A stretch of DNA of 64,000 nt, from the NCBI GenBank assembly GCA_026982655.1, contig JALSGO010000083.1, positions 30-64,029 of the forward strand, given 5' to 3'. Position numbers and translations under genes: made by a program. Source of the DNA: Candidatus Bipolaricaulota bacterium (GTDB taxonomy: Bacteria; Bipolaricaulota; Bipolaricaulia; RBG-16-55-9). Positions within the stretch are counted from its first letter, which is position 1; each line of letters opens with the position of its first letter. Of this stretch, positions 14,108-56,407 are shown piece after piece. The notes under the pieces were generated by a model. The model was not told the origin of the DNA and made no database searches. It saw only the letters and a program-made list of their open reading frames with translations.

Positions 14108-14368
14108 ATGGCCTTTGTCATCGCGGAGCCCTGTGTGAACACCAAGTCGGGCGAGTGCCTCCAAGTCTGTCCGGTGGATTGCATCCACCCGCGTCCGGAT
14201 GAGCCCGGATACGACGAGGCCCCCCAGCTGTACATCGACCCACAGACCTGCATCAACTGCGGCGCGTGCGCGTCCGTCTGCCCGGTGGAGGCGATCTTCC
14301 CCGAGGAGGACCTCCCCGAGGAGTGGCGCAAGTACATCGAGATCAACGCGCAGTACTATCAGAAGTGA
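14108..14368 (+). CDS. Ferredoxin (7Fe/4Fe-4S type)
   Basis: CxxSGEC...CP and CINCGACASVCP cysteine clusters; AGGAGG RBS. Confidence 0.8.
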   Translation: MAFVIAEPCVNTKSGECLQVCPVDCIHPRPDEPGYDEAPQLYIDPQTCINCGACASVCPVEAIFPEEDLPEEWRKYIEINAQYYQK

Positions 14369-14437
14369 CCCGCACGGAACGGAACGGGTCGTCTCCGCCT
14401 CCTCCAGGCCGTTCGGCGGTCCTGAAGGGCTTTCCTT

Positions 14438-32415: not shown

Positions 32416-32478
32416 CGGATGCCGGATCCGTTCCCGCCCTTGACAACCCGGGTCGGTCGTGGTATCGTAGGATCGCCT

Positions 32479-32502
32479 TTCCCACCCCACCGGGGGTGGG
32501 AA
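32479..32502 (+). promoter_or_regulatory. CsoR-type operator, perfect 10-bp-arm inverted repeat TTCCCACCCC-ACCG-GGGGTGGGAA
   Basis: Read directly; same architecture (CCCACCCC-N4-GGGGTGGG) as characterised CsoR operators; 28 nt upstream of the Rieske gene start. Confidence 0.6.
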
Positions 32503-32530: not shown

Positions 32531-33181
32531 GTGAAAGCGCGGAAGAAACGGCCCGAGGAGGAGCGGTGGGAACTCTCGCCGGAGGCGCGTCGACTGAGCC
32601 GGCGGAAGTTCCTGGCTCGCTTGGGCCTGGGCTCGCTGGTCCTCACGGCGGGAGGAGCGGTCAGCAGCATCGGCGCCTACATCCTGCCGAAGGTGAACTT
32701 TGAGCCCTCTCAAGCGTTTACCGCCGGGCGACCGGAGGACTACAACGTCGGGGACGTGCGGCTGATCGAATCCCAGGCCGTGTTCATCTTCCGCACGCCC
32801 TATGGCTTTCAGGCCGTCTCGGACATCTGCACCCACCTGGGGTGCGCCTATCAGCCGTACGGCCCGCCGGACGACGAGTACCCCCAGGTCCATGCCCATT
32901 GCCCCTGTCACGGGTCGGTCTTCGCGCGGGACGGGCGGGTGTTGCGGGCTCCCGCTCCTCGGCCCGTGCCCTTCTACTACATGACGATCAACCCATCGGG
33001 CTTGCTGGTGGTGGACAAGGGGGTCTACGATCCCACGGACGAGCTGAGCCGCCAGAGCGGCGAGGGGGTAGGGCACAACCTCTATCTCGACCCCGAGACG
33101 GGGCAGATGGTAGAGGGTCCGCTGCCCACCGGCGAGGACCTCCGGTTCGGAGCGATCCGAACCGAGCCCTCTCGAGGCTGA
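32531..33181 (+). CDS. Rieske [2Fe-2S] iron-sulfur protein with twin-arginine signal
   Basis: SRRKFLARLG Tat motif; CTHLGC...CPCHGS Rieske boxes; AGGGGAGGG RBS. Confidence 0.8.
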   Translation: MKARKKRPEEERWELSPEARRLSRRKFLARLGLGSLVLTAGGAVSSIGAYILPKVNFEPSQAFTAGRPEDYNVGDVRLIESQAVFIFRTPYGFQAVSDICTHLGCAYQPYGPPDDEYPQVHAHCPCHGSVFARDGRVLRAPAPRPVPFYYMTINPSGLLVVDKGVYDPTDELSRQSGEGVGHNLYLDPETGQMVEGPLPTGEDLRFGAIRTEPSRG

Positions 33182-33268: not shown

Positions 33269-35848
33269 GTGCAGAGATCGCAGGCACAGGCGAGGACGGC
33301 GACGGAGAAACGGGAGCAAAGCTCCGCGGACACGCGTCTGGAGCTCCCCATCCGCGGGATGACGTGCGCTTCGTGCGTGGCCCGGGTCGAGCGGGCGCTC
33401 CAAGGCGCGCCCGGCGTCCGGGAGGCCCAGGTGAACTTCGCCGCGGAGCGCGCGTCCGTGGTGCTCAACCCGGAGGCGGGCTCCCCGGAAGCGCTGGTGG
33501 AGGCCGTCCGCGAGGCCGGCTATGAGGTCCCCACCGAGGCGCTCACCCTGCGGGTAAAGGGGATGACGTGCGCTTCGTGCGTGGCCCGGGTCGAGCGGGC
33601 GCTTCGCGAGGTCCCGGGAACCTTGAAGGCCGCGGTCAACTTCGCCGCGGAGACGGCCCAGATCGAGTACCTCCCCGGGGTGGCCTCGCCGCAGGACTAC
33701 CTCCAGGCCGTCCGGGACGCGGGCTACGAGGCCCAGCTCGCCGAGGAGGAGCGGGGCGAGGACGCGCTGGAGCGCCAGAGGCGGGAACACGAGGCCCATC
33801 TCAAGAAGCTCCGCCTTAAGATCGCCGTCGGTGCGATCATCAGCGTCCCCGTCTTCTTCGGCAGCTACCCCAAGCTCTTCCCCTGGGTGCCGGAGATCCT
33901 GCAGAACTTCTACGTGCTCTGGGCGCTGACCACCCCGGTGCAGTTCTGGGTCGGCTGGCAGTTCTACAAGGGGACCTGGGCGGCCTTAAAGCACAAGTCC
34001 GCGGACATGAACACGCTGATCGCCGTCGGCACCTCCGCGGCCTACCTCTACAGCGTGCTCCTCATCTTGTTCCCCCGGTTCTTCGAGGCCCAGGGGATCG
34101 CCCGGGAAGTGTACTTTGACACCTCGACGATCATCATCACCCTCATCCTGGTGGGGCGGTATCTCGAGGCCGTGGCCAAGGGACGCACCTCGGAGGCCAT
34201 CCGCAAGCTCATGGGGCTCCAAGCCAAGACGGCCCGCGTGGTCCGCGACGGGCGCGAGATCGAGATCCCCGTCGAGGAGGTCCAGGTCGGCGACATCGTG
34301 GTGGTGCGCCCCGGCGAGAAGGTGCCTGTAGACGGCGTGGTGATCGAGGGCTCCTCCGCGGTGGACGAGTCGATGGTCACGGGCGAGTCGATCCCCGTGG
34401 AGAAGGGCCCCGGCGACGAGGTGATCGGGGCGACGATCAACAAGACGGGGACCTTTACCTTCAAGGCGACCCGAGTGGGCAAGGACACCTTCCTGAGCCA
34501 GATCATCAAGCTGGTCGAGGAGGCCCAGGGCTCGAAGGCCCCCATCCAGCGCCTGGTCGACAAGGTGACGGGCGTCTTCGTCCCGGCGGTGATGCTCATC
34601 GCCTTGGGGACGTTCGTCGTGTGGTACTTCTTCGGGCCGCACCCCGCTTTGACCTATGCGCTGCTCAACGCCGTGTCGGTGCTGATCATTGCCTGCCCCT
34701 GCGCGCTGGGGCTGGCCACTCCGACGTCCATCATGGTGGGGATGGGCAAGGGGGCCGAGCACGGCATCTTGATTCGCAGCAGCGAGGCGCTCGAGCGGGC
34801 GGGCAAGATACAGACCATCGTCTTCGACAAGACGGGGACGCTCACCCGCGGAGAGCCCCAACTGACGGACATCCTCCCCGCGGAGGGCTTCACGGAGGCC
34901 GAGGTGCTCCGACTGGCGGCGGCCGCGGAGCGGCGGAGCGAGCACCCCCTGGGGGAGGCGATCGTCCGAGGCGCCGAGGAGCGGGGGTTGGACTTGGCCG
35001 AGCCGGAGGGCTTCCAGGCGATCCCGGGCCACGGCATCGAGGCCACGGTCGAGGGGCACCGGGTGCTGTTGGGCAACCGGCGGCTCATGGAACGGGAGGG
35101 CGTCGACGTGCGCGCCTTGCAGGCCCAACTGGAGCGACTGGCCGACGAGGGCAAGACCCCCATGATCGTGGCCGTCGACGGCCGGGCAGCCGGGGTGCTG
35201 GCCGTGGCCGACACCCTCAAGGAGGGCTCCCGAGAGGCGATCGAGGCGCTGCACCGGTTGGGCATCGAGGTGGCGATGATCACGGGCGACAACCGGCGCA
35301 CCGCCGAGGCGATCGCCCGCCAGGTGGGGATCGATCGGGTGCTGGCCGAGGTGCTCCCCCAGGACAAGGCCAAGGAGGTCAAGCGCCTCCAGCAGGAGGG
35401 CCGGGTGGTGGCCATGGTGGGCGACGGGATCAACGACGCGCCCGCGCTGGCCCAGGCCGACGTGGGGATCGCCCTGGGGACGGGGACGGACATCGCCATC
35501 GAGACGGCCGAGGTCATCCTGATCTCGGGCGACGTGCGCGGGGTGGTGACCGCCATCGCCCTCTCCCGGGCCACGATCCGCAACATCAAGCAGAACCTCT
35601 TCTGGGCCTTCTTCTACAACACGGCGCTCATCCCTGTGGCCGCCGGGGTGCTCTACCCGTTCACGGGCCTGTTGCTCAACCCCATCCTCGCCGCGGCGGC
35701 GATGGCCACCAGCTCCGTCTCCGTGGTGACGAACGCCCTGAGGCTGCGGCGGTTCCGCCCCCCGGTCGTCCAGGGACCGCCCGGCCCCTCGCGCGGGGAG
35801 CCGCGCCCCGACTCCGTCCCGGTCCCGGCGGCCGGAGCGGGCCGCTAG
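33269..35848 (+). CDS. copA: Copper-translocating P1B-type ATPase with two N-terminal HMA domains
   Basis: Two [12 protein letters not shown] (MxCxxC) domains, TGES, CPC in TM6, [19 protein letters not shown]; GTG start chosen (ORF opens at 33191). Confidence 0.9.
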
Positions 35849-35923: not shown

Positions 35924-36238
35924 ATGACCGAAGAACTACTGGTGTTGTTACAGCAGGGGAGCCTGGCGGCCCACCCGGAGGCGAAGCGCCACGCCCAGCG
36001 GCTCGTCCGCACCGTCATCGGCCACACCCAGGGCATCGAGCGGATGATCGAGGAAGAGCGATACTGCATCGACATCTTAAAGCAGATCGCCGCGGTGCAG
36101 GGGCTGCTGACCAAGCTGGCCCACACCGTAAGCGAAGCCCACATGAAACACTGCGTGCGACTGGCCATCGAGGAGGGCCACGGCGAGGAGGCCGTTGAAG
36201 AACTGATGGAGACGCTGAAATACCTGCGGAGCGTATAG
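35924..36238 (+). CDS. csoR: CsoR family Cu(I)-sensing transcriptional repressor
   Basis: ~104 aa; Cys (RYC) and H-x3-C (AHMKHC) with C-to-H spacing of 25 as in M. tuberculosis CsoR C36/H61/C65; no N-terminal His cluster (not RcnR). Confidence 0.8.
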   Translation: MTEELLVLLQQGSLAAHPEAKRHAQRLVRTVIGHTQGIERMIEEERYCIDILKQIAAVQGLLTKLAHTVSEAHMKHCVRLAIEEGHGEEAVEELMETLKYLRSV

Positions 36239-36245
36239 TTCCCCC

Positions 36246-38663
36246 ATGGGGTGGCTGGACGGCCTGCTGCGCCATCGTGGGCTCGTGCTGGGGGCGGCTT
36301 TGCTGCTCACCGTTCCGGCGCTCCTGTCTCTCAGTCGATTGGAGTCCCAGGACACCTACGATGCTTGGTTCCCCCCGGACGACCCGGCGTATCGCTTCTA
36401 TCGGGAGTTCCAGCGGCGGTTTGAGAACGACATGTTCATCGTGGTGGCCTATCGAGACGAGACCCTCTTCACCCGGGAGGGGCTGGCGTTCCTCGCGGAG
36501 CTCACCGCCCGTCTTGCGGAGCTCCCCTACGTGCGGGAGGTGACCAGCCTCACGAACGTCGAGCACGTCCGGGGGGAAGAGCAGGCGCTCATCGTCGAAC
36601 CCCTCGTCCCCGATCCGGAGCGCCTCGATCCCGACGTCGTCCGGCAACGGGCCCTCTCGCGCCCCCTCTACCGCGGGCTGCTGATCTCCGAGGACGGGAC
36701 GACGACCGCGGTCGTCGCCGAACTCGACCGGATCGCCTCCATGGACGAGGAGGCCGCTCTGGTGGGGGCCCTCAAGGACCTCCTGCGCACGCTGGAGGTC
36801 CGAACGGGCAAGTCCTTCTACATCGGGGGCTATCCCGTCCTCGACGTCGAGATCATGCAGGCTTCCGAGCGGGATATCCGGACGTTCATCCCCTTGACCG
36901 TCGGGGCCATCTTCCTCGTATTGTGGGGGGTCTTCCGCCGACCGTCGCTGGCCGCCCTGGCGTTCGTGTCCGTCTCGCTGGCGCTGGCTTGGACCTTCGG
37001 GCTGTACGCCGGCCTGGGTCTTAAGTACAGCATGATGCTGAGCATCCTGCCCACGATCATCCTCGCCATCGGGATTGCGGATGCGGTACACATCTTGGTC
37101 CACTACTACGAGGAGCTCGCCCGGGGGCGGCCGCAGCGGGAGGCCCTCCGTCAGACCCTACGAAAGATGCTCCGCCCCTGTCTGTTCACGACGCTGACGA
37201 CCGGAGCCGGGTTCATCTCGTTCTTGAGCAGCGATATCCCCGTGGTGCGGCTGACGGGGCTCTTTGCCGCGGTGGGCATCGGGCTTGCGTTCGTGCTCAC
37301 GGTGCTCGTGCTGCCCGCAGCCGTCTCGTTTTTCCGCCCGCCGCACGGGACGGCCCGGCGACGGTCTCAGGGCACGTTCGCTCGGGCCTTGGAGGGGCTG
37401 ACCCGAACGACCCTGGCCCACCCGCGCGCCGTGCTCCTGGGGGCCGGGATCGTGCTCGTCTTCGGCCTGTACGGGATCTCCCGCTTGGAAGCCGAGACGC
37501 TGGGCCTGGAGTGGCTGCGCGACGACCACCCCCTCCAGCAGAGCTATCGCTTCATCGAGGAGAACCTCACCGGGCTGTACAACCTCGAGCTCATCGTCGA
37601 GGGCGAACGGGACGCGCTCCGCTCCCCCGAGATGCTCCGCCGGATCGAGGAACTCAGTGCGTTTGCGCTCCAACAGCCGGGCGTGCGCAAGGCGATCTCC
37701 GTGGTCGACTACGTCAAAGAGATCCACCGGGCGCTCCGCGGGGGAGATCCCCGGTACTACACGATCCCGGACACGGCCCGCGACGTCGCGCAGGCGTTGT
37801 TGCTCTACGAGTTCTCCGGGGGACGCGAGCTGCGCGAGATCGTAAGCGGCGACTACAGCGCCGGACGACTCACCCTGCTGCTGGATGCCCTCTCCAGCCG
37901 GGAGTACACCGAGCTCAACCGACGCATCCTCGAGCGCGCCGAGACGTTGGACTTCCCTCGGCCCGTGCAGGCAACCGGTGCAGTGGTCCTGGTCGAGGCG
38001 ATGCTCAAGAAGCTCACCCTCAGCCAGGTCCGGAGCTTGGGGTTGGCTTTGGCCCTGATCACCTTGCTTATGATCGCCCTGTTGCGCTCCTGGAAGTTGG
38101 GGCTGCTCAGCTTGATCCCCAACGGGCTGCCGATCCTGCTGATGTTTGCGACCATGGGCCTGCTCTCCATCCCCCTGGACGCGGCGACGTCCACGGTCGC
38201 GGGGATGGCTTTAGGGATCGCCGTGGACGACACGATCCACTTCTTGACCCGCTTCCGACGCGAACTGAACGTGACGGGCGACTATCGCCGGGCGCTCACG
38301 CAGACGGCCCGGACGGTCGGCCAGGCGATCGTGTTCACGTCCGTGATCCTGCTGGCCGGCTTCAGCGTGCTGTTGCTGGGCAGCTTCAAGGGAACGGTGT
38401 ATATGGGGTTGCTCGTCGGGCTCACGATGCTCTTCGCGCTCGTAGGGGATTTGGTGCTCCTACCCGCGCTGCTCTGGGTCCTCAAGCCCCTCCCTGTGTC
38501 CGCAGCTGCTTCGACCCCGGCTCCGGCTCCGATGGCGGACGATGGCCGATCAGCTTCCGACCAGAGGAGGTTGAGGGAGGTCATGGACGACGCCCCCCGG
38601 GTGCAGGGTACGCTTATGCGTGGCCGGGACGAGGAAACAGGAGCCCGCGAAGCCGGCAGGTGA
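36246..38663 (+). CDS. RND superfamily transporter, MMPL/HpnN-like (12 TM, two periplasmic loops)
   Basis: 805 aa with duplicated 6-TM bundles and MMPL-type motifs (GIGIADAVHIL..., GIAVDDTIHFLTRF). Confidence 0.8.
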   Translation: MGWLDGLLRHRGLVLGAALLLTVPALLSLSRLESQDTYDAWFPPDDPAYRFYREFQRRFENDMFIVVAYRDETLFTREGLAFLAELTARLAELPYVREVTSLTNVEHVRGEEQALIVEPLVPDPERLDPDVVRQRALSRPLYRGLLISEDGTTTAVVAELDRIASMDEEAALVGALKDLLRTLEVRTGKSFYIGGYPVLDVEIMQASERDIRTFIPLTVGAIFLVLWGVFRRPSLAALAFVSVSLALAWTFGLYAGLGLKYSMMLSILPTIILAIGIADAVHILVHYYEELARGRPQREALRQTLRKMLRPCLFTTLTTGAGFISFLSSDIPVVRLTGLFAAVGIGLAFVLTVLVLPAAVSFFRPPHGTARRRSQGTFARALEGLTRTTLAHPRAVLLGAGIVLVFGLYGISRLEAETLGLEWLRDDHPLQQSYRFIEENLTGLYNLELIVEGERDALRSPEMLRRIEELSAFALQQPGVRKAISVVDYVKEIHRALRGGDPRYYTIPDTARDVAQALLLYEFSGGRELREIVSGDYSAGRLTLLLDALSSREYTELNRRILERAETLDFPRPVQATGAVVLVEAMLKKLTLSQVRSLGLALALITLLMIALLRSWKLGLLSLIPNGLPILLMFATMGLLSIPLDAATSTVAGMALGIAVDDTIHFLTRFRRELNVTGDYRRALTQTARTVGQAIVFTSVILLAGFSVLLLGSFKGTVYMGLLVGLTMLFALVGDLVLLPALLWVLKPLPVSAAASTPAPAPMADDGRSASDQRRLREVMDDAPRVQGTLMRGRDEETGAREAGR

Positions 38664-38722: not shown

Positions 38723-39373
38723 ATGAACCCGCAGGAACGATGGAACGATGCTCTGACGCCGGAGAAGGAACCGACCGAGGGAGCTCTCTCGACGCCGCCC
38801 CCGGACGGCGCGTCCGAGGGGACCGGAGAGGGGCGGTCCCCTAAGGGGCGAACCGTGGGGATCGCCCTGATCCTCGCCGTGGTCGTGGGGATCGGCATCG
38901 GGTACTCGCTGTATTCCTTGCGGGCCGAGAGGGTGTCCGGGCTGGCGTCCACGGGGAGGGAGGTAGACCGGGGCCTCGGCGGCGGCATGCCGGCGATCGT
39001 GGTGGCCCCGCTGCTTAGGGATCTCGGGGAGGTGAGCGTCCAAGGGGGGACGGTGACCACCTTCTTCACCGTGCGCAATCCCGGGGACGGGGTGCTGGTC
39101 ATCACCGACATGGAGACTTCCTGTATGTGCACGGAGGTCGCTTTGATCGTGGACGGCGTGGAAGGCCCTCGACTCGGGATGCGCGGCCACGGTCCGCGGC
39201 CCGAGTGGTCGGCCCGGCTGAACCCGGGCGAGGAGGCGACCCTTAAGGTCTACTACGACCCCACGGTACACGAGGAGCTACGCGGACCGGTCACCCGCGT
39301 GGTGCGGGTTCACACGAACGTCCCCACCCGTCCCTACGTGGACATCTTGATCGATCTGGTGCAAACGGACTGA
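38723..39373 (+). CDS. DUF1573 domain protein (SCxCT motif variant SCMCT), membrane-anchored
   Basis: TM anchor, then FTVRNPGDGVLVITDMETSCMCT matching the DUF1573 signature N-G-PL-I-SCGCT; GGAGGAAAGGAA RBS. Confidence 0.65.
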   Translation: MNPQERWNDALTPEKEPTEGALSTPPPDGASEGTGEGRSPKGRTVGIALILAVVVGIGIGYSLYSLRAERVSGLASTGREVDRGLGGGMPAIVVAPLLRDLGEVSVQGGTVTTFFTVRNPGDGVLVITDMETSCMCTEVALIVDGVEGPRLGMRGHGPRPEWSARLNPGEEATLKVYYDPTVHEELRGPVTRVVRVHTNVPTRPYVDILIDLVQTD

Positions 39374-39424
39374 CTCCCGTGGGCAGACCGAAGGCTACAC
39401 GACAATCGGGGAGGGAATGCCAAG

Positions 39425-40000
39425 GTGATGAACGGGGAATCGAGGGACAAGGACCAAGGTCAGAATACGGAGATGCACGCGATCCGCCGCCGGGCGGCCT
39501 TCTTGAGCCGAGGCGGAGTGAGCCTGCCCCTCCTGATCATCGGGGTCCTCCTGGCCCTGGGGACGACTGCGGGCCTGGGGTATTTGCGTCTGGCGGGCCC
39601 ACCGGCGGCAGGCCCTCCGCGCATCGAGGTCACGCCGGAGCTCATCGAGTTCGGAGAGATCTCCCCCACCGAGAAGGCGGTCGTGGAGTACCGTGTGCGA
39701 AACGCCGGGGGAAGCCCGTTGGAGATCACCCGCGTGAGCACCTCGTGTGGGTGCACCACCGCCGAGGTCGGCAAGACGACGCTCCTCCCCGGCGAGACGA
39801 CTCCGTTGCGCGTCACCTTCGACCCCCAAGCGATGCGGGCCGAAGGGCTCAACGAGGAGGACATCTACCGGATCATCTTCCTAAGGAGCAACGACCCCGA
39901 GCGGCCGGAGGTTACCGTCGAGCTTCGCGGTCGCGTCCTGCCGTCGGACTCGGACTCGAACTCGAACTCGGAGCCGGAGTCTGCCGTCGAGGGGAGGTAA
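39425..40000 (+). CDS. DUF1573 domain protein (canonical SCGCT motif), membrane-anchored, (DS/NS)n-rich C-terminus
   Basis: YRVRNAGGSPLEITRVSTSCGCTT signature; paralog of the preceding gene. Confidence 0.7.
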   Translation: MMNGESRDKDQGQNTEMHAIRRRAAFLSRGGVSLPLLIIGVLLALGTTAGLGYLRLAGPPAAGPPRIEVTPELIEFGEISPTEKAVVEYRVRNAGGSPLEITRVSTSCGCTTAEVGKTTLLPGETTPLRVTFDPQAMRAEGLNEEDIYRIIFLRSNDPERPEVTVELRGRVLPSDSDSNSNSEPESAVEGR

Positions 40001-40098
40001 CCGAAGCGCTCGGTTGGGGCCGGGCACGGGGGACGGCCCCCTAATCCCACCCCAGGAGGGAAGGGAAAGGGGAAGCTTCCTGAAGGAAGAAGAAGCCC

Positions 40099-42771
40099 AT
40101 GGCCAAGGTCAAAGACCCCGTCTGCGGGATGGAGATCGACGAGGAAGAGGCCGTCGCCTCCCACGTCTACGAGGGGCAGACGTACTCCTTCTGCTCCAAG
40201 GACTGCGAGAAGGAGTTCGTCGAGAAGCCCGAGTTTTATGTCAAGCCGGAGCCCGCCCGCTCGGCGACCACGGGCGTGGACGTCGAGAGCACGGAGCCGG
40301 TGCACGCCGAGCTCCCCCTGGCGGGCTTGGACTGCACCAGCTGCGTGGTGACCGTCGAGCGCACCCTGCGGGAGGTCCCCGGCGTGGAGAGGGCCCACGT
40401 CAACTTCTCGCTGGGGATCGCGCACGTCACCTACGATCCCAAGGAGGCGAGCGTCGAGGACGCCGTCCAGGCGCTCAAGAAGGCGGGCTACGACGTGGGG
40501 GCCGCCGAGATGCGGGTGCGCATCGAGGGGCTTCGCTGCGCCTCCTGTGTGGGCTTCATCGAGGAGGCCCTGCGGAAGGTCCCCGGCGTCTTGGAGGCCA
40601 CGGTGAGCCCCGGAACGGAGACGGCGGTCATCCGCTACGTCCCCGGGATGGTGAGTTTTCCGGCGATCAAGGAAGCGATCGAATCTACGGGCTACAAAAC
40701 GGTCCACCGCCTGGAGGAGGAGGAGCCGCCCGATCAGGAGGCCGCCGCCCGCGAGCGGGAGTACCGCCTGCTCATGCGCCGCTTCCTCTTCGCCGCCGTC
40801 GTCTCCGTCCCGGTGCTCCTTACGGCCTATCCCGAGTTCGTGCCCTTCTTGAGGGATCTTCCCCGGAGCACGATCCGGCTCATCTGGGCCTTCGACGCGC
40901 TGCTGACGCTGCCCGTGTTGTTGTGGTCGGGTCAGCGCTTCTTCACGGGCGCTTGGGCGGCGTTCAAGCACCACAGCGCGGACATGAACACGCTGATCGC
41001 GCTGGGCACCGGCGCGGCGTGGGCCTATTCGACGGTCGCGATCGCCTTCCCTCAAGTGTTCCCCGAGGGGACGGCGGAGCCCTTCTTCGACGTGGCCGCC
41101 GTGGTCATCGCCTTGGTCGTGTTGGGCCAAGCGCTCGAGGTCCGGGCCAAGGGGCGCACCAGCGCGGCGATCAAAAAGCTTCTCGACTTACAAGCCAAGA
41201 CGGCCCGCGTGGTGCGCGACGGGCAGGAGATGGACATCCCCGTGGAAGAGGTGCTCGTGGGCGACGTGGTGGTGGTCCGCCCCGGCGAGAAGGTGCCTGT
41301 AGACGGCGTGGTGATCGAGGGCTCCTCCGCGGTGGACGAGTCGATGATCACCGGGGAGCCGATCCCCGTGGAAAAAAATCCCGGGGATGAGGTGATCGGC
41401 GGGACGATCAACAAGACGGGGTCCTTCAAGTTCCGGGCGACCAAGGTGGGCAAGGAGACGGCGCTGGCGCAGATCGTCCAGCTCGTACAACAAGCCCAAA
41501 GCACCAAGCCCCCGATCGCCCGGCTGGTGGATGTGGTGAGCGGCTACTTCGTGCCCGCGGTGATGATCATCGCGGTGCTGGCGTTCTTGGTATGGTTTAA
41601 TTTCGGGCCGGAGCCGCGGCTGACCTTCGCCCTGGTGACCGCGGTGACCACGCTGATCATCGCCTGCCCCTGCGCGCTGGGGCTGGCCACCCCCATGAGC
41701 ATCATGGTCGGGGTGGGCAAGGCCGCCGAACACGGGATTCTCATTCGCAACGGCGAGGCCCTCCAAAAGGCCTCGAAGCTGGACACGATCGTGCTCGACA
41801 AGACGGGCACGGTCACCAAGGGGAAGCCCGAGCTGACCGACGTGATCGCCGCTGAGGGCTTTACAGAAGACGAGGTGCTCCGCCTGGCGGCCAGCGCGGA
41901 GCGGGCCAGCGAACACCCCTTGGCCGAGGCGATCGTCCAGGGCGCCCAGGCGCGCGGACTGGAGCTTGCGGACCCCGAGACGTTCAACGCCGTCCCCGGC
42001 CACGGGATCGAAGCCACGCTCGACGGCAAGAGAGTGCTCCTGGGCAACGTAAAACTCATGAAGCGCGAGGGCATCGACGTCGGCGGCCTCCGCGAGGCGG
42101 CGGAGCGCCTCTCCGACGAGGGCAAGACCCCGATGTACATGGCCGTCGACGGCCAAGCCGCGGGGCTGATCGCCGTGGCCGACACGATCAAGGAAGACTC
42201 CGTCGCGGCCATTCGGACGCTCCAGGAGCTGGGGCTGGAGGTCGTCATGCTCACCGGGGACAACCGCCGCACCGCCGAGGCGATCGCCCGCCAGGTCCAC
42301 ATCGACCGGGTCCTGGCCGAAGTGCTCCCGGAGCAGAAGGCGGCAGAGGTGAAGAAGCTGCAGCTCGAGGGCCGCAGGGTCGGCATGGTCGGCGACGGGA
42401 TCAACGACGCGCCCGCCCTGGCCCAGGCCGACGTGGGCTTCGCCATCGGGACGGGGACGGACGTGGCCATTGAAGCTGCGGACATCACGCTCGTGGGCGG
42501 AAGCCTCCGCGGGGTGGTCACCGCCATCGAGATCTCCAAGGCCACCATGCGCAACATCAAGCAAAATCTCGTGGGAGCCTTCATCTACAACACGCTGGGC
42601 ATCCCGGTGGCCGCGGGGGTCTTCTATCCCCTCACGGGGATGCTGCTGAGCCCCCTCATCGCGGGGGCGGCGATGGCGTTTAGCAGCGTGACCGTGGTGA
42701 CGAACGCCAACCGCCTGCGGCGGTTCCGGCCCCGGATCGTCTCCGACTTCGAGGAAGGAGGTACGACATGA
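40099..42771 (+). CDS. copA: Copper-translocating P1B-type ATPase with N-terminal YHS/TRASH domain plus two HMA domains
   Basis: [11 protein letters not shown]...[12 protein letters not shown] (YHS/TRASH); two CxxC HMA domains; [16 protein letters not shown]. Confidence 0.9.
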
Positions 42772-43142
42772 TCGCGCAAATCGTGGTGAACGTCTTGGGG
42801 CTGCTCGCGATCGTCTGGATCGTCTGGTACTTCTGGATCTACGAGAAGAAGGGCGTCGTGGCCGCGGAGGCGGGCGGCGCTCAAGAAGTTCGCATTCGGG
42901 TCAAGGGGGGCTACGACCCCGACGTCATCGTCGTCCAGGCCGGAAAGCCCGTGAAACTCCACTTCTACCGCGAGGAGGAGGCGTCGTGCAGCGAGACGGT
43001 CGTCTTCCCGGACTTCGCCCAGTCGCTGAAGCTTCCGCCCTTTGAGACCGTCACCCTGGAGCTTCTGCCGGAGAAGCCGGGGGAGTACGAGTTCCACTGC
43101 CAGATGAACATGCTGCGGGGCAAGCTCATCGTGGAGGAGTGA
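42768..43142 (+). CDS. Cupredoxin-like domain small membrane protein fused downstream of copA ([10 protein letters not shown] motif)
   Basis: N-terminal TM helix, ~90 aa beta-sandwich region with Cys/His/Met cluster; paralog of 48785-49270; start overlaps copA stop (ATGA). Confidence 0.6.
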
Positions 43143-45347: not shown

Positions 45348-45371
45348 ATCCCACCCCACGGGGGGTGGGAT
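45348..45371 (+). promoter_or_regulatory. CsoR-type operator, perfect inverted repeat ATCCCACCCC-ACGG-GGGGTGGGAT lying between -35 TTGATC and -10 GATAAT
   Basis: Read directly; 18-bp spacer promoter fully occupied by the palindrome; downstream gene is cytochrome b. Confidence 0.65.
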
Positions 45372-48309: not shown

Positions 48310-48331
48310 CCCACCCCCTCTGGGGTGGAAT
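48309..48331 (+). promoter_or_regulatory. CsoR-type operator (imperfect): ACCCACCCC-CTCT-GGGGTGGAAT between -35 TTGACC and -10 AATAAT (17-bp spacing)
   Basis: Read directly; paralogous to the 45331-45375 module (CATGACGCA..TCATT..CCCACCCC..GGGGTGG.ATAAT). Confidence 0.55.
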
Positions 48332-48784: not shown

Positions 48785-49270
48785 GTGCCAATGCCTAAGA
48801 AGACGAACAAGGATCGGAAGGTCAAGCAGCAGCGTCTACTCCGGCAGGGGGCGGCCGGGGGCTGGCGGCCCTGGGCCTTTGGGGCCGTCACCCTCGGGGT
48901 GCTAACAGCCGCGTTTGGGCTGCTCTTGCCGAAGTTCTTCGCCGACGGTCCCGCAGCGGACGGGGAGGCCAACGTCATCCTGGTCGAAGCGGACATGGCC
49001 GGGCTCTATCCCAAGGAGATCCGGGTCAAGGCCGGGGAGCCCGTGACCATCCGCCTGCGCAGCTTGGACAACCGGTTCCACCTGGACGGGGGAGGCAAGC
49101 ACCAGTTCGCCATCGACGAGCTGGGGGTCAACATCATCGCTCCGCCGCTCGGCACGGCCGAGGCCACCTTCATCCCTACGGAACCGGGTGAATACGAGTT
49201 CTACTGCGACATCTGCTGCGGCGGGCGGGCCAACCCGACCATGGTAGGGAGGCTGATCGTCGAGCTATGA
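48785..49270 (+). CDS. Cupredoxin-like domain protein (EYEFYCDICCGG motif), membrane-anchored
   Basis: Paralog of 42768-43142 (shared PGEYEF-xC motif and beta-sandwich core); GGAGCAGGAGG RBS. Confidence 0.6.
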   Translation: MPMPKKTNKDRKVKQQRLLRQGAAGGWRPWAFGAVTLGVLTAAFGLLLPKFFADGPAADGEANVILVEADMAGLYPKEIRVKAGEPVTIRLRSLDNRFHLDGGGKHQFAIDELGVNIIAPPLGTAEATFIPTEPGEYEFYCDICCGGRANPTMVGRLIVEL

Positions 49271-50109
49271 GCGCTCTGACCCAGATCTCCGCGCGCAAGG
49301 TGGTGCTGGCCTCGGCGATCGCCCTGGGGGTGATCGCCGCCGCGGTCTTCTTGGGGCTGCGGCACCCCTCCGCCCAGGCCGTCCCGATGAGCCCGCTCCT
49401 CCCGGCGGTGACGCTGGGGACCATCGTGGTGGCCGGGATCGTCGACGGGATCAACCCCTGTGCCTTCACGGTGCTCCTACTGTTCGTTACTGCCCTGCTC
49501 GCGAGCCTGCAAACCCGCAGCGACGTCGGGATCGCCGAGAACGTGGGGGCCACGCGCGCCCGGATCGTGGGGCTCGGCTCCATCTACATCGCAGCCATCT
49601 TCCTCACCTACCTGGCGCTGGGGGCGGGGCTCTTGGTGACGGCAGATCTCTTCGTGCGGGAGCACCTGCCCGCCCGGATCGGGGCGCTGCTCGCCATCTT
49701 CCTCGGGCTGTGGATGCTCAAGGACTACTTCCTGCCCGGGTGGGGCTGGCGGCTGGGGGCCCCCAAGGTCGTGGGGGAGTGGGCCCGGCGCGCGGCCCGG
49801 AAGATGACCGTCCCGGCGCTGGCGCTCGGGGGCTTTCTCATCGGGCTCTGCACCGTGCCCTGCAGCGGGGCGGTCTACCTGGCGGTGCTGGCGCTCCTCT
49901 CGACCCAGCCGACCGCGACGGCCTTCGGGTACCTGGTGCTCTACAACCTGATGTTCATCCTCCCGTTGGTCGGGGTGCTGGCCGTGGCCGCGTCGCGCCC
50001 GGCGCTGAACCGCTTGGCCCGCTGGAACCTCCACCACCGGGAGGGGGTCCGGCTGGCCTTGGGGTCGGGTGTCGTGCTCATGGGGCTGTTCATCCTGTAC
50101 ACCGTCTAG
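49267..50109 (+). CDS. Cytochrome c biogenesis CcdA/DsbD-family thiol-disulfide transmembrane protein
   Basis: Two TM-embedded Cys (DGINPCAF; CTVPCSGAV) in 6-8 TM helices. Confidence 0.7.
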   Translation: MSALTQISARKVVLASAIALGVIAAAVFLGLRHPSAQAVPMSPLLPAVTLGTIVVAGIVDGINPCAFTVLLLFVTALLASLQTRSDVGIAENVGATRARIVGLGSIYIAAIFLTYLALGAGLLVTADLFVREHLPARIGALLAIFLGLWMLKDYFLPGWGWRLGAPKVVGEWARRAARKMTVPALALGGFLIGLCTVPCSGAVYLAVLALLSTQPTATAFGYLVLYNLMFILPLVGVLAVAASRPALNRLARWNLHHREGVRLALGSGVVLMGLFILYTV

Positions 50110-50159: not shown

Positions 50160-50480
50160 GTGAACAACCATCATGCGGGAGGCGGCAAGCCCTGCCACGT
50201 CGAGCGGCTGGAGAAAGAGGTGGACATGGAGGCGCTGCGCTCCACCCGGGTCAGCATCCTGGCGGTGACGGGGATGGGGTGTCCCAACTGTGCCCTGCGG
50301 GTGCACAACGCGCTCCTCGCCCTCCCCGGCGTCCATCGGGTGGACGTGGAGCTGGAGGCCGAGCGGGCGATCGTCTACTGGGACCCGACCGCCCTGCAGC
50401 CGGAGAGGCTGATCGAGGCGGTCTCCCAGGCTGCGGCGGGGACCCCTCACGACTACCGGGCGTACTTCGTGAAGCCGTAG
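50160..50480 (+). CDS. Heavy-metal-associated (HMA) domain protein, CopZ-like (GMGCPNC)
   Basis: MxCxxC motif in beta-alpha-beta-beta-alpha-beta context; AGGAGAAAGGAGG RBS before GTG 50160. Confidence 0.65.
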   Translation: MNNHHAGGGKPCHVERLEKEVDMEALRSTRVSILAVTGMGCPNCALRVHNALLALPGVHRVDVELEAERAIVYWDPTALQPERLIEAVSQAAAGTPHDYRAYFVKP

Positions 50481-50642: not shown

Positions 50643-51173
50643 ATGGACCTTAGGCTCATCGCCGTTGCGATCGTCTCCTTGGCGCTGGGGTTCCTCTTGG
50701 CCTCCGGCCTGCGCCCGGAGGTCGGGGTGGGGCCTTCGGAGGCGGAGCGGATCTTGGAGCGGCTGCGGCGCGAGATCATCCCGGAGGAGGGCAGCCCCAC
50801 GGGCTACGGGATCGCCTTCAGCGAGGCGGGCTACCAGACCCTGGTGGCCAAGAACCGCACACTCAGCGTCCCGCCCGAGCGGGCGGACGACTTCGAGGGC
50901 CTGGACATGAGCCTGCCCTGCTGTCCCTTCCAGAGCCCGAGCGTCGACGAGGCGAAGAACTGCCCGTGCGAGCACCATCAGGCGCTCTACGGGCTGGCCA
51001 AGTGGCTCCTCCAAGAAGACTATCCCGCAGACCGGGTCCAGGAGGAGGTGGCGCGCTGGAGCCGCTACCTCTTCCCCAAGGAGGCGCTGCGGGCGGAGAT
51101 GGAGCGGCGGGCGAAGCTCGATCCCGCCGTCGAAGCCGCCCTGGAGGAGCTCAAGGCCAAGGGGAAGTGCTAG
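50643..51173 (+). CDS. Membrane-anchored Cys-rich hypothetical protein (LPCCPF...NCPCEHH motifs)
   Basis: N-terminal TM helix; two CC/CxC clusters plus HH; AAGGAGGGA RBS. Confidence 0.5.
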   Translation: MDLRLIAVAIVSLALGFLLASGLRPEVGVGPSEAERILERLRREIIPEEGSPTGYGIAFSEAGYQTLVAKNRTLSVPPERADDFEGLDMSLPCCPFQSPSVDEAKNCPCEHHQALYGLAKWLLQEDYPADRVQEEVARWSRYLFPKEALRAEMERRAKLDPAVEAALEELKAKGKC

Positions 51174-52590: not shown

Positions 52591-52613
52591 ATCCCACCCC
52601 AGGTGGGGTGGAT
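52591..52613 (+). promoter_or_regulatory. CsoR-type operator (imperfect): ATCCCACCCC-AGGT-GGGGTGGAT immediately before GATAAG and the MMPL gene start
   Basis: Read directly; TTGACA at 52554-52559 upstream. Confidence 0.5.
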
Positions 52614-52618
52614 AAGGG

Positions 52619-55573
52619 GTGAAGCGAATGGCCCGAGGGCCGGACTTCCTGATACGTTGGCGCGTGCCGCTGCTGGTCGCCGTCCTGGTGGCCACCGCGC
52701 TCTTGGGCGCGGCGGTCATGGGAGCCAAGCTCAACGCCGACTTCTCCACGTATCTTTCCCAAGACAGCCCGCTCGTCCGGGAGTTCAACCGCGTCGGCGA
52801 GGTCTTCAAGGCCAACTACGTCGGCATGGTCCTCGTCCGGACCGAGGATCTGTTCACCCCCGAGAACCTCAGGCTGCTGGATCGCCTGACCCGAGCGTAT
52901 AAGTCCATCGAGGGCGTCGACTCGGTGACCAGCCTCACCAACGCCGTCGACTTCCGGCGGGCCGACGGCGGCCTGGTTGTGGGAAAACTCCTCGAGGGCA
53001 AGCCCCTCCCGACGGCGCCCGAGGAGCTGGAGAGGTTCAAGCGCTACGTGCTCTCCAAGGAGATGTACGTCGGCGCGTTGGTCAACGCCAAGGGCACCAC
53101 CGCCGTGATCCTGGTGCGCCTGCTTCCCAAGGTGAATCACTTCAAGGTCGCCGGGCAGATCGACCAAGTCACCCAGGAGATCGCGCCCAATGCAGAAAAC
53201 ATCTACTACGGCGGGATGCCCTTCCTCATCTACTCCATGACCGGGCTCATCCTCGACAACCTCTTCTTCCTGGTGCCGCTGATCATCCTGTTGCTCGTGG
53301 GGGTGCTGGAGCTGGGTTTCCGCCGCCTGGGCGGGGTGCTCGCCCCCCTGACCGTGGTGCTGCTCGCCGTGGTCTGGACGATGGGGATCCTGGCGCTCCT
53401 GGGCCGCCCGATCGACCTTCTGACCGGGATCGTCCCCATCATCCTCATCGCGATGGGCTCGGCGGACGGGATCCACTTCATGCGGCGCTTCTACGAGGCG
53501 CGGGCCGCCGGAGCCGAGCGCCGCGAGGCCGTGAAAATCACAATGAGGGAGATGGGCACGCCGATCGTCTTTACGTCCATCACGACCATGATCGGGTTCG
53601 CCTCGCTGGCCATCTCGAACTTCGACATCATCCGGACGTTCGGCTGGGCCACCGCGCTGGGGATCTTCCTGGCGCTGGTCGTCACCCTGATCGTGCTCCC
53701 CGCCGGACTGTCCTTTGGCCGGGAGCGGGCCTCCGTGCCTGCCGAGACGGACAACAGCGGGAGGCCGCGCAGCGTCCGGGGAGGGAGCCGGGCGATGGCC
53801 GCCCTGGGCGGGGGGATCCACCGGCGTCCGGGCGCGATCGCGCTCCTGACGGTGGGGGTGATCGCGCTGGCCGCGGTGGGGATCCCCCGCATCGTGGTGA
53901 ACGTGGACTGGTCGCTCTGTCTGGCACGGGGCAGCAAGCCGTACTTGGCGGAGATGCTGCTGCGCCGGGAGTTCGGCGGCTCCCTGCCCCTGCTCGTGTC
54001 CGTGAAGGGCGACGTCAAGGACCCGGCGACGCTGGAGACGATGCGGGCCGTGGAGCGCCACCTCGACGCGCTGCCCGAGGTGAGCGAGGCCGAGTCGATA
54101 GCGTCGGTGCTGGCGGAGATGAACTGGACGCTCAACGGGCGCTTCGCCGTGCCCACCGAGCGGGCTCAAGTCAACAACTTGTGGTTCCTGCTCCAGGGAC
54201 AAGACGTGCTCGATCAGATGGTCCGCTCGGACAACCAAGAGGCGCTGGTGCAGGCGAAGGTGGCCTCGCTGGGCACGGCGGTGATCAGCCGGGTGGTCGA
54301 GGACGTGAACGCCTTCTTGAGCCGCCTGCCCCAGAAGTTGGTCGTCGTGGACGCCGCCCAAGCGCCCCCGGATGCTCAACAGGCGCTGAGGGAACTCCAA
54401 GCTCAGCAAGTGAAAGAGGCTCTGGCTCAAGACCTGCGGGCCAAAGGCCTTTCGGTTGAACCCGCGGCGCTCGAAGCTGTTGTTGAGGCAGCGCAGAGCT
54501 GGACCCCCGGCGAACCCGACTACGCGGCGCTCGGCGAAGCCATTGAGAAATATTTGCTGAGCCCCGAGTCCGAGGTGCCGTTCGACGACCCTGCACAGGC
54601 CGCGACGATAGCCGAGTCGATCACCACAGCGCTCAGCGAGCGAGGCGGACGGCCATTGAGTGTCTCTGAGTTAGAAGCGTTGCTGCGCCCCCAGGTCGAG
54701 ACGTCCTACCCCGAGGACGTGGCCTGGCTGGCAGAGGCGTTAGTTTATCGCGTCGATGAGTTTTTAGATGCCCGTCGCGTGGAGGCGGCTTACGCGCAGC
54801 TGGCCGCCCAGCTGCCCCCGGAGGCGCGCTCCAACACGGATCTTGCGAAGAAGCTGCGCGGCGACCTTTGGGGGCTGACGACTGCGACGCTGGCGCTCGG
54901 TCCCCAGCAGTACGAGTCCCTGCAGGCCCAATATGGTCTGGACCTCGCGCGGACGGTGACCCTGGCCGCCGAGCCCTCGGGCCTAGCCCCGGTGCTGGAT
55001 CAGATGGAGAAGGAGCTGCTCCCCACCCAGATCGAGAGCACGGCGCTGGCCTTGTTGGCCGTGACGCTCTTGCTGATTTTGGTGTTCCGCTCGCTGCGGG
55101 CGGGGCTTTTGGGGATCGTCCCCGTGGGCCTGACCATTCTGGTCAATTTCGCAGTGTTAGGCTACTTCGGCATCGGCCTGGACTCGTTCACCGCGATGAT
55201 CGCCAGCATCACCATCGGCCTGGGGATCGACTACGCGATCCACTTCACCCACCGCTTCCGGAAGGAGTTCGAGCGCTCCGGCGACGAGCGGACGGCCCTC
55301 ATCACCACGTTGCAGACGACGGGCGTGGCGATCCTCATCAATTCGTTTTCGGTGGGCGCGGGGTTCGCCGTGCTGCTCTTGGCCGGCGGCCAGCACATCC
55401 GGCTCTTGGGAGGCCTTACGGCAATAGCGCTCCTGGTGAGCGCGCTCTTCACCCTGGTCGTGCTCCCGGCGCTCACGCTCTTGTGGAAGCCGCGCTACTT
55501 TCAGACCCCCGTCGTCGTGGAGCCGAAGCTGCGCCCTGAGCCCGAAGCCGAGAGGGGAGTTCAAAGCGCGTGA
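52619..55573 (+). CDS. RND superfamily transporter, MMPL family (984 aa, large periplasmic domains)
   Basis: Duplicated 6-TM bundles, MMPL motifs (GSADGIHFMRRF; GLGIDYAIHFTHRF); real start may be ATG 52628 (leaderless). Confidence 0.8.
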   Translation: MKRMARGPDFLIRWRVPLLVAVLVATALLGAAVMGAKLNADFSTYLSQDSPLVREFNRVGEVFKANYVGMVLVRTEDLFTPENLRLLDRLTRAYKSIEGVDSVTSLTNAVDFRRADGGLVVGKLLEGKPLPTAPEELERFKRYVLSKEMYVGALVNAKGTTAVILVRLLPKVNHFKVAGQIDQVTQEIAPNAENIYYGGMPFLIYSMTGLILDNLFFLVPLIILLLVGVLELGFRRLGGVLAPLTVVLLAVVWTMGILALLGRPIDLLTGIVPIILIAMGSADGIHFMRRFYEARAAGAERREAVKITMREMGTPIVFTSITTMIGFASLAISNFDIIRTFGWATALGIFLALVVTLIVLPAGLSFGRERASVPAETDNSGRPRSVRGGSRAMAALGGGIHRRPGAIALLTVGVIALAAVGIPRIVVNVDWSLCLARGSKPYLAEMLLRREFGGSLPLLVSVKGDVKDPATLETMRAVERHLDALPEVSEAESIASVLAEMNWTLNGRFAVPTERAQVNNLWFLLQGQDVLDQMVRSDNQEALVQAKVASLGTAVISRVVEDVNAFLSRLPQKLVVVDAAQAPPDAQQALRELQAQQVKEALAQDLRAKGLSVEPAALEAVVEAAQSWTPGEPDYAALGEAIEKYLLSPESEVPFDDPAQAATIAESITTALSERGGRPLSVSELEALLRPQVETSYPEDVAWLAEALVYRVDEFLDARRVEAAYAQLAAQLPPEARSNTDLAKKLRGDLWGLTTATLALGPQQYESLQAQYGLDLARTVTLAAEPSGLAPVLDQMEKELLPTQIESTALALLAVTLLLILVFRSLRAGLLGIVPVGLTILVNFAVLGYFGIGLDSFTAMIASITIGLGIDYAIHFTHRFRKEFERSGDERTALITTLQTTGVAILINSFSVGAGFAVLLLAGGQHIRLLGGLTAIALLVSALFTLVVLPALTLLWKPRYFQTPVVVEPKLRPEPEAERGVQSA

Positions 55574-55624: not shown

Positions 55625-56407
55625 ATGAAGCGTAGTGGAAGTAGAACGAGAACGGTGATCCTCGGACTGACGGTGACGTTGCTCCTGGCGGTCGGCGCTT
55701 GGGCGATCACGGGCGACGAGGTGCTGCAGAGGTCTCAAGAGGCGATGCGGCCCGGCCAGGACGCGACGATCACGGAACGGATGACGATCGCCAAGCCCGA
55801 CGGCCAGACGGACGTGCTGGAGCTCAAGATGTACATGAAGGGGGAGAAGACGCTGATCCGCGTCCTCGCCCCGGAGGACTTCGCGGGCATTGGGCTGTTG
55901 ATCCTGCCCCAGGAGGACGGCGGCGAGGAGATCTGGCTCTATCTTCCGGCCTTCCGGGACGTGAAGCAGATCGTGGCCGAATCCTTGAGCGAGGGCTTCG
56001 TCGGCTCGGACTTCGCCTACGAAGATCTCACGGTGCGCTACACCTCCAAGTGGGACGTGACCTCCATGAGCGAGGAGGAAGGGCAATACGTCCTGACGCT
56101 GGCTCCCAAGCCCGAGGCCCAGCTCAGTTACAGCGGGGCGCGCATGTGGGTGGACCAGGAGACGTTCCTGCCCACGCGGGCGGAGTTCGACCGGGAGGGA
56201 GAGCTGCTCAAGGTGCTGACCCTCTCGGAAGTGCAGGACTTCCCCAGCGTCGCGGACCCCGAGACGAGCTACCCCACCCCGACGCGGATCGAGATGGCCA
56301 ACGTGAAGACGGGGAGCCGGACCCTCATCGAGCTTTTGGAGGTCGAGTACGACACCGGGCTCTCGGACGACTTCTTCACCGTACGCAACCTCAAGCGGGG
56401 CGAATAA
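55625..56407 (+). CDS. LolA-like outer-membrane lipoprotein-sorting family protein (MMPL-associated)
   Basis: Signal peptide, LolA-like half-barrel signature (IWLYLPAFRDVKQI...GSDFAYEDL); paralog of 60626-61486. Confidence 0.65.
   Translation: MKRSGSRTRTVILGLTVTLLLAVGAWAITGDEVLQRSQEAMRPGQDATITERMTIAKPDGQTDVLELKMYMKGEKTLIRVLAPEDFAGIGLLILPQEDGGEEIWLYLPAFRDVKQIVAESLSEGFVGSDFAYEDLTVRYTSKWDVTSMSEEEGQYVLTLAPKPEAQLSYSGARMWVDQETFLPTRAEFDREGELLKVLTLSEVQDFPSVADPETSYPTPTRIEMANVKTGSRTLIELLEVEYDTGLSDDFFTVRNLKRGE

Follow-up and report, generated by a model that had tools for sequence, protein, structure and literature searches.

How extracytoplasmic thiol chemistry is coupled to copper export is a question to which, until now, only the enterobacterial Dsb/Scs systems have given an answer. 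Scs proteins are induced by copper, bind Cu+ and act as thiol oxidoreductases, and the alpha domains of both DsbD and ScsB adopt immunoglobulin (Ig) folds (PMC10907172). We analysed a stretch of 64,000 nucleotides from a Candidatus Bipolaricaulota bacterium (contig JALSGO010000083.1; the whole stretch is called the window here), in which two adjacent genes on the + strand encode proteins with a DUF1573 domain, paralogue A (38723-39373) and paralogue B (39428-40000). DUF1573 is a large domain family whose function is unassigned, and the four papers of the searchable literature that mention it tie it neither to copper nor to CcdA. Judged from sequence, the proposition that A and B act outside the membrane as thiol modules which bind Cu(I) and are kept reduced by a CcdA-type conduit stands for us at an even balance between being right and being wrong.

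Compared with DsbD and ScsB, the DUF1573 system of relatives appears to have the same three kinds of module: an outside Ig-fold domain with a cysteine pair, an outside thioredoxin-fold domain with CxxC, and a membrane domain of the CcdA/DsbD-beta type with conserved cysteines. ScsB-alpha is a tandem of two Ig folds (PMC10907172), which parallels the two DUF1573 paralogues that recur per locus. The systems differ in that (i) the Ig domain here is DUF1573, which is PapD/HYDIN-like and carries CxC instead of Cx3-5C, (ii) fused chains run alpha-gamma-beta here and alpha-beta-gamma in DsbD/ScsB, and (iii) the thioredoxin-like domain here looks CopG/DUF411-like and the membrane domain appears to be of the short CcdA type. 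DsbD and ScsB belong to Proteobacteria, whereas the DUF1573 system is found mostly in Chloroflexota, the Candidate Phyla Radiation (CPR), Bipolaricaulota, Deinococcota, Thermotogae and archaea. In the window each module has a gene of its own, and no gamma-beta partner lies next to them. The Pfam scan of A and B returned no DsbD N-terminal family, and neither DsbD-alpha nor ScsB-alpha stands among the top 50 of the 112 significant fold matches of B. The parallel drawn here is one of function and not of genealogy: these searches found no DsbD-alpha homology, the cysteines form a CxC, the modules of fused chains stand in another order, and the thioredoxin-like domain looks like CopG.

Two DUF1573 subfamilies and their conserved residues

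Both window proteins exceed the gathering score of the DUF1573 hidden Markov model (PF07610, 26.1 bits): A (216 aa, with an ATG start and GGAGG ahead of it) reaches 44.1 bits and B (190 aa from its ATG, with an alternative GTG upstream at 39425) reaches 66.0 bits. The two share 29% identity (BLASTP E 1e-9) and match each other with a profile-profile probability of 99.8% (E 2e-30), and by these sequence measures they are true paralogues. An earlier note on this DNA, made from the letters alone, had described two paralogous DUF1573 proteins here, one with SCGCT and one with SCMCT, and both the domain and the motifs are in place. The S-C-M-C-T motif of A (S133-T137, with C134 and C136) is encoded at 39119-39133 (+) and the S-C-G-C-T motif of B (S106-T110 within STSCGCT, with C107 and C109) at 39743-39757 (+); the motif cysteines are the only cysteines in A and the only ones in B. 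Relative to B, an insertion of ~21 residues follows the motif in A, and this loop carries M153 and H156, with a further histidine at H183. The ectodomain of B contains exactly two cysteines, one methionine and no histidine; the methionine, M136 (codon at 39833-39835, +), stands in the His/Met column considered below.

Each protein has a single hydrophobic N-terminal helix, at residues 45-63 in A and 35-53 in B (33-55 in the AlphaFold2 (AF2) model of B). Lysine and arginine are more frequent before the helix than after it, which points to an N-in/C-out signal-anchor topology, and A and B would thereby be membrane-anchored with their Ig-like domains outside. For B, AF2 predicts a seven-strand Ig-like sandwich (predicted local distance difference test 94-98 over residues 61-170), which Foldseek matched best to 2qsv (E 2e-10) and then to HYDIN/PapD-like domains; B has an Ig-like fold of the PapD/ASH/HYDIN type by this model, and A is linked to it by the profile-profile match given above. 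The structure 2qsv, which lacks the Cys motif, is also the sole match in a sequence search of the PDB and hence the best match to a solved structure. The OS_HP2 (seleno)protein subfamily (NF041425), with its U/C-G-C active motif, has the motif position in common with the window proteins, but B at 49.3 bits and A at 28.7 bits stay below its curated cut-off of 100. Neither A nor B matched HMA/CopZ, CusF, CopC, PCuAC or Cupredoxin_1/CupA, and the only Pfam and NCBIfam families returned were DUF1573 and Ig-like ones. The closest match in the scan of species-representative genomes comes from a Candidatus Fraserbacteria metagenome-assembled genome (MAG; 48%). The acidic (DS/NS)n tail that the earlier note had pointed out in B is present (...PSDSDSNSNSEPESAVEGR, SDSDSNSNS), but it is the product of a hexanucleotide tandem repeat (TCGGAC x4.8, 39944-39972, +) and is absent from homologues, and we set it aside as a functional element.

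Alignments of homologues divide the proteins, on sequence grounds, into what are two distinct conserved subfamilies. B-type homologues (78 found) keep T-S-C-G-C-T-T-A almost invariantly, and A-type homologues (25 found) share the loop of ~21 residues after CxC, with the consensus EGPxFGMRGHG. The CxC itself is invariant in all 25 A-type and in all 124 non-identical B-type sequences. Its middle residue among the 25 A-type sequences is Met (11), Gly (11), Ala (2) or His (1); CMC is the usual form among the close relatives of A, and distant A-type members have CGC, CAC or CHC, so the SCMCT that the earlier note had called a variant is real but no oddity. The A-type loop holds a methionine in 23 of 25 sequences and a histidine in 19 of 23, with Met in its place in some, and H183 is invariant among A-type sequences. 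B-type proteins have a third conserved position, located in a DPxx[H/M] turn after strand E, which is His in 103, Met in 13 and another residue in 3 of 119 sequences and is M136 in the window protein. The model of B places the turn that holds the CxC (strands 98-105 and 110-114 on either side) and the His/Met turn (after strand 124-131) at one end of the sandwich. A fixed site next to two thiolates at which His and Met replace each other is what would be expected, at the sequence level, of a set of Cu(I) ligands; restriction to these two residues (116 of 119) is expected of a soft-metal ligand, and a pure disulfide relay would have no need of it. In domain 3 of CCS, the copper chaperone of SOD1, a Cys-x-Cys serves both Cu(I) binding and disulfide chemistry; the analogy with DUF1573 is chemical only, as fold, compartment and organisms are unrelated. 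A CXC motif of Ccs1 has also been mentioned (PMC3192855).

Selenocysteine (Sec) forms of the DUF1573 motif have been reported as UGC (PMC9312934, PMC13188914). The CxC of the window proteins aligns with this UGC, and the window proteins carry Cys and not Sec at both positions. At locus L007 (5758-6228, +), and likewise in L008 and L009, an open reading frame (ORF) of 96 aa with a weak DUF1573 match and an ORF of 35 aa form one frame through an in-frame TGA that directly follows the second motif cysteine (...VKTVAGC-[TGA]-PPQP...SNDP...), after which comes a His/Met-rich loop (HIKVHLHMHPGMGGPHH). To judge from its sequence, the L007 gene probably encodes a selenoprotein form with a vicinal Cys-Sec pair, unlike the published UGC form; a hairpin starts ~14 nt past the TGA, with a folding energy no better than that of shuffled sequences (z -0.31). 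The existence of Sec-containing forms marks the motif as chemically active. As a separate observation on domain architecture, a set of DUF1573 proteins (P0100-P0103, P0037 and P0045) includes some with an N-terminal or internal Cys-rich segment CPCCGxxLDxxxxCCxMAxE that is CcmH-like by Pfam, and others that are fused to a rhodanese or a c-type cytochrome domain.

Copper genes and a CxxC/CcdA-like partner near DUF1573 genes

We searched species-representative genomes with the B-type alignment, which gave 298 relatives, and kept the best 79 loci (1.01 Mb). These come mostly from Chloroflexota, and also from Bipolaricaulota, Thermotogae, CPR groups, archaea, Desulfobacterota, Gemmatimonadota and a cyanobacterial plasmid, and they were screened by tblastn with seed proteins from the window and four context loci. 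At least two DUF1573 genes stand side by side in 52 of the 79 loci, and each of three fused versions examined closely (see below) has a second, free-standing paralogue ahead of it. This recurrence in other organisms makes the pair the rule for this system and not a local duplication.

Full-length P1B-ATPases were found in 21 of the 79 loci (25 genes), and among the 35 loci with 5 kb or more on each flank, 16 have one; the loci that bear them span Chloroflexota, Bipolaricaulota, Thermotogae, CPR groups, archaea and Desulfobacterota. About 15 of the 25 ATPases carry the Cu(I)-exporter signatures CPC, YNx4P and MxxSS, and seven are of the CPH (CopB) type. CsoR occurs in 9 and a small HMA protein in 19 of the 79 loci, and one or more copper markers are present in 34 of them. 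By comparison, each of 18 unrelated window proteins that served as an internal control, among them members of abundant families (ABC permeases, MFS, sigma-70, alpha/beta hydrolases), matches 0-3 of the 79 loci. Co-occurrence of DUF1573 with copper genes is well above background, the outcome on which the earlier note had staked its reading. By precomputed Pfam labels, HMA, CsoR, cupredoxin, P-type ATPase and DUF305 genes surround three loci with fused proteins.

The most constant neighbour of DUF1573 is not a copper gene; it is a CxxC/CcdA-like protein of ~410 aa, which is present in 48 of the 79 loci and lies no more than 1 kb from the DUF1573 gene in 45. This partner consists of a signal peptide, a soluble CxxC domain and a six-helix membrane domain. 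Invariant residues of the soluble domain are the CxxC, two histidines and one methionine, and those of the membrane domain are NPC in the first transmembrane helix (TM1) and C-x-x-P-C in TM4. The PF02683 (CcdA/DsbD_TM) score of the partner from locus L003 is 14.2 bits and stays below the threshold of 27.1; the same family is precomputed for several representatives of partner clusters. A search of the whole partner model for similar folds gave no clear match to a CcdA structure, probably diluted by the presence of two domains. The soluble domain scores 19.9 bits against PF04214 (CopG/DUF411; threshold 27), and its half of the protein is modelled as a thioredoxin-like fold with weak fold matches (E 0.5-1.4). 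CopG (DUF411; 6wis, 6wje) is a periplasmic copper-cluster protein, and it is the partner and not DUF1573 that may resemble it, in an LG(I/V)P...EGHVP segment common to the partner profile and 6wis (E 2.3), an N-terminal Cys motif, a thioredoxin-like fold and a copper-resistance context. The two differ in that the partner has CxxC instead of CxCC, and all matches between them are sub-threshold.

Some 25 of the top 120 homologues combine the modules in a single chain, in the order anchor, DUF1573 domain (STSCGCT), CxxC domain and CcdA-like transmembrane domain; Trueperaceae, Bipolaricaulota and Thermoflexales are the sources of these fused chains. That the two are neighbours across phyla and are also joined in fused genes argues strongly for a common function of DUF1573 and the partner. 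Within the lineage of the window, the partner gene directly follows DUF1573B in L003 and L091 and is not beside the DUF1573 pair in L089. Coupling of the three modules is a feature of relatives (adjacent in 45 of 79 loci, fused in ~25 of 120 homologues) and is not seen at the locus of the window. The earlier note had suggested a periplasmic role in metal or thiol handling; the domain assignment and the copper co-occurrence speak for this suggestion in part, and metal binding would be putative. The note had missed that the most constant partner is the CxxC/CcdA-like protein and not copA.

The association with the partner also speaks for a pure thiol-disulfide relay, in which the CxC domains are alpha-like output modules of a CcdA/DsbD-type reducing pathway and bind no copper stably. 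Such a relay would reduce or isomerise copper-damaged disulfides, or would keep copper proteins with Cys ligands, such as cupredoxins, in the reduced state. Adjacency and fusion to thioredoxin-fold CxxC domains and CcdA-like transmembrane domains follow the logic of DsbD and ScsB, whose alpha domains are Ig folds. Several loci contain extra CcdA and TlpA/ResA-like genes (thioredoxin/ResA-like genes occur in 13 of 79 loci and rhodanese in 11), the fusions of DUF1573 to CcmH-like, rhodanese and cytochrome c domains fit a redox pathway, and Sec-containing forms are typical of redox sites. A relay would not be expected to have the position limited to His and Met, which would form a soft-metal ligand pattern together with the Met and His of the A-type loop and in the middle of CxC, and neither the Pfam scan nor the top 50 fold matches relate DUF1573 to DsbD-alpha. 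We consider a relay alone unlikely, if far from negligible; relay and Cu(I) binding are compatible, as Scs proteins do both.

Quite improbable in our view is an assembly factor for respiratory metalloproteins, which would deliver reductant or copper to cytochrome c maturation or to CuA/oxidase in the manner of TlpA, Sco or PCuAC and would have no part in detoxification. Five of the 79 loci (L010, L012, L014, L047 and L070) have ccm or ResB/ResC neighbours, JGI and NCBI name the partner 'cytochrome c biogenesis protein CcdA', and Rieske, cytochrome b and COX1 genes lie in the island of the window and in relatives. These names are, however, automatic family labels, copper-export markers (34 loci) outnumber the genes for cytochrome c maturation (5 loci) about sevenfold, and the ATPases are of exporter types and are paired with CsoR, a derepressor.

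The Cys-lined membrane domain itself (C in TM1, CxxxC in TM4) might also move Cu(I), by the logic of MerP/MerT, with DUF1573 and the CopG-like domain as donors or acceptors at the outer face. The conserved membrane cysteines number three and not two, the soluble domain of the partner has invariant His and Met residues and some likeness to CopG with its copper cluster, and weak matches to ArsG and SfLAP were obtained. The DsbD_TM family belongs to the LysE superfamily, home of several metal transporters. CcdA-type electron transfer through two cysteines would nevertheless account for the core of the conservation, and the CopG match is sub-threshold, which leaves copper conduction a very improbable account of these sequences. 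Of the readings considered, the one in which DUF1573 would bind Cu(I) and be kept reduced by the partner has the most support.

Directly upstream of the DUF1573 pair on a Fraserbacteria-like contig (L004:6622-7446), and again in L005 (1306-2130), we observed a gene for a protein of 274 aa that contains a segment extremely rich in Met (MGMMGQGMMGSGMMGGMGMMGQ...). Pfam gave no match for it, and by its composition it may be a Met-rich Cu(I)-binding protein.

The copper island of the window and its putative regulation

The DUF1573 pair is part of a densely packed row of genes on the + strand between 32.4 and 43.2 kb of the window, which extends from a Rieske protein to a cupredoxin. The Rieske [2Fe-2S] protein (32531-33181, PF00355) is the first gene of the putative operon and is followed by copA1 (33269-35848; 859 aa by gene call, a Cu-type P1B-ATPase with two HMA domains), by csoR (35924-36238, with the Cu(I)-type ligand set C48/H73/C77, HxxxC) and by a transporter of the MMPL/HAE3 family of the resistance-nodulation-division (RND) type (36246-38663), the upstream neighbour of the pair. 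Downstream of the pair lie copA2 (40099-42771, a Cu-type P1B-ATPase with an N-terminal YHS and two HMA domains) and, with a start that overlaps the copA2 stop, a membrane-anchored Cupredoxin_1 protein of 124 aa (42768-43142). All these genes are on the + strand, and the row agrees with the copper-themed surroundings, MMPL upstream and copA2 downstream, that the earlier note had described. The cupredoxin has the residues C74, C111, M113 and M115, a ligand pattern and numbering that we take to be those of the Cu(I) chaperone CupA of S. pneumoniae.

Independent assemblies and relatives also have the order csoR-MMPL-DUF1573A-DUF1573B, precomputed Pfam-labelled contexts show the copper island of the window again in L003 and L091, and a Rieske gene stands ahead of copA also in L089 and L093. 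An Rfam scan of the window returned zero matches.

Between 32400 and 43300, a single promoter-like site was found, a TG-extended, sigma-70-like TTGACA-17-TATCGT (32440-32468, +; a consensus match only). A perfect G-tract palindrome, CCCACCCC-N4-GGGGTGGG (32481-32500), follows between this site and the Rieske start, as would suit a CsoR regulon; operators of CsoR are G-tract pseudopalindromes (PMC3902906). Further copies of the putative operator lie upstream of copA2 (40046-40065, 2 mismatches), upstream of a cytochrome b gene (45350-45369, 0 mismatches), before a cupredoxin/CcdA-like gene pair (48310-48329, 1 mismatch) and upstream of a second MMPL gene, MMPL2 (52593-52612, 1 mismatch). All five copies (0-2 mismatches) are intergenic and ahead of + strand genes. 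A search of the window with up to 3 mismatches gave 7 matches where 2.1 are expected; the two 3-mismatch matches (3040 and 6887) were set aside as chance. The same palindrome is found ahead of copA or a Rieske gene in L003, L089 and L091, and in the Thermotogae MAG L015 it precedes copA, after which copA, csoR, DUF1573, partner, CcdA and thioredoxin genes follow on one strand.

Up to DUF1573B, the intergenic gaps of the row measure 8-87 nt, and no terminator-like site was found on the + strand within them. The palindrome, a CsoR with Cu(I)-type ligands and short gaps free of such sites together make copper-responsive co-transcription of the operon through DUF1573B likely, as far as sequence can tell. 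The distribution of the palindromes suggests a putative CsoR regulon far larger than the usual copZA operon, one that would include respiratory and MMPL genes.

The pair behind the fourth palindrome consists of a cupredoxin-like protein (48785-49270, +; 161 aa, with a CDICCGG motif in C-D-I-C-C-G-G...M) and a stand-alone CcdA-like membrane protein (49267-50109, +; 280 aa, with NPC and CTVPC motifs); stop and start overlap (ATGA), and the two genes are translationally coupled. The CcdA-like protein, 9 kb downstream of the DUF1573 genes, has homology to the membrane half of the ~410-aa partner, as no other protein of the window does. A cupredoxin is paired with a 280-aa CcdA-like protein also in L093 (cupredoxin at 14354-14824), and the pair looks like a sister version of the partner with a cupredoxin in place of the CxxC domain.

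Between the CcdA-like gene and a cytochrome b-like gene are situated a small HMA gene (50226-50480; CopZ-like, GMGCPNC) and then a gene for a 176-aa protein (50643-51173) with CC and CPC motifs (LPCCPF...NCPCEHH), for which NCBIfam gave no match. Near the end of the window (61682-63124), a YNCE-like beta-propeller is fused to a rhodanese domain, and a comparable propeller protein adjoins CsoR in a Trueperaceae copper locus (L092:2070-3084).

The window holds three MMPL/HAE3 genes. MMPL2 (52619-55573) and MMPL3 (58189-60585) are each followed by a gene for an extracytoplasmic LolA_like, DUF1329-related protein (55625-56407 and 60626-61486), and the copy adjacent to DUF1573 is the one without a LolA-like neighbour. 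The adjacency that the earlier note had stressed is real, being kept in the window, L003, L089 and L091, but it is lineage-specific: none of the 79 distant loci has an MMPL gene within 10 kb, which rules out MMPL as a general partner of DUF1573. We hold it to be the least probable account of all that A and B serve the upstream transporter as accessory subunits, as the LolA-like proteins might do for the other two, since a 118-aa gene intervenes between MMPL and the pair in L003 and L091 and both the invariant Cys/His/Met pattern and the CcdA-like partner would be left unexplained.

Proposed role of the DUF1573 proteins

According to the Cu(I)-binding reading, A and B would be membrane-tethered, outward-facing Ig-fold proteins whose working part is the Cys-x-Cys together with nearby Met and His residues. 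Candidate site residues are C107, C109 and M136 in B and C134, possibly M135, C136, M153, H156 and H183 in A. The proteins would bind Cu(I) on the outside of the membrane, where they might take up, buffer or hand on the copper that CopA pumps encoded in their own, putatively CsoR-controlled island export. For this, their thiols would need to stay reduced. In most organisms the reducing job would fall to the neighbour or fusion partner, through its CxxC thioredoxin/CopG-like domain and its CcdA-like transmembrane thiol conduit, and this partner may exchange either electrons or copper with the DUF1573 cysteines. The resulting three-module chain would be laid out as in DsbD and ScsB, with an Ig-fold alpha, a thioredoxin-fold gamma and a membrane beta module. 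For the window pair, this role might be played by the stand-alone CcdA-like protein (49267-50109), by a partner whose gene is not on this contig, or by no protein at all. The analysis shows domain identity, sequence features compatible with the topology, conserved residues, gene neighbourhoods with fusions, and operator-like sites; Cu(I) binding, the direction in which electrons or copper flow and control by CsoR are what we infer from these patterns.

Several points weigh against this proposal. Cu(I) binding by A and B is predicted from conservation patterns, and the closeness of M136 (or His) to the CxC is argued from the strand topology of the model only. A known copper-protein fold does not occur among the top 50 of the 112 significant fold matches of B, and was rejected for B after the fold search gave only generic PapD/HYDIN-like Ig folds. 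Both the CopG and the thioredoxin assignment of the partner are sub-threshold. The partner gene is not beside the pair in the window, where the proposal does not account for the supply of reduced thiols. Across the sample, 20 of the 79 loci have neither partner nor copper marker, many of them on short contigs, and the five loci with cytochrome c maturation genes adjoin these instead.

On a broader view, we tentatively suggest that TSCGCT-clade DUF1573 domains, CopG-like CxxC domains and CcdA-like domains form an undescribed and widespread copper-defence system, convergent with ScsB/DsbD, in which DUF1573 would be the Cu(I)-binding, redox-active output; this falls somewhat short of an even chance. 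Its range would then perhaps cover Chloroflexota, CPR bacteria, Bipolaricaulota, Deinococcota, Thermotogae and some archaea, which we put forward with similar reserve. With the same caution, the window could represent a reduced version of the system, with two free-standing DUF1573 paralogues within a CsoR/CopA/MMPL operon. Thiol systems of the cell envelope with a tie to copper stress are known as a kind; the combination of domains and the phylogenetic range appear to be new.

For the DUF1573 family, the analysis provides a testable hypothesis, composed of a CxC with His/Met residues, a CxxC/CcdA-like partner and a regulator site. If it is true, it would show in what way extracytoplasmic thiol chemistry is coupled to copper export outside Proteobacteria, including in CPR bacteria.

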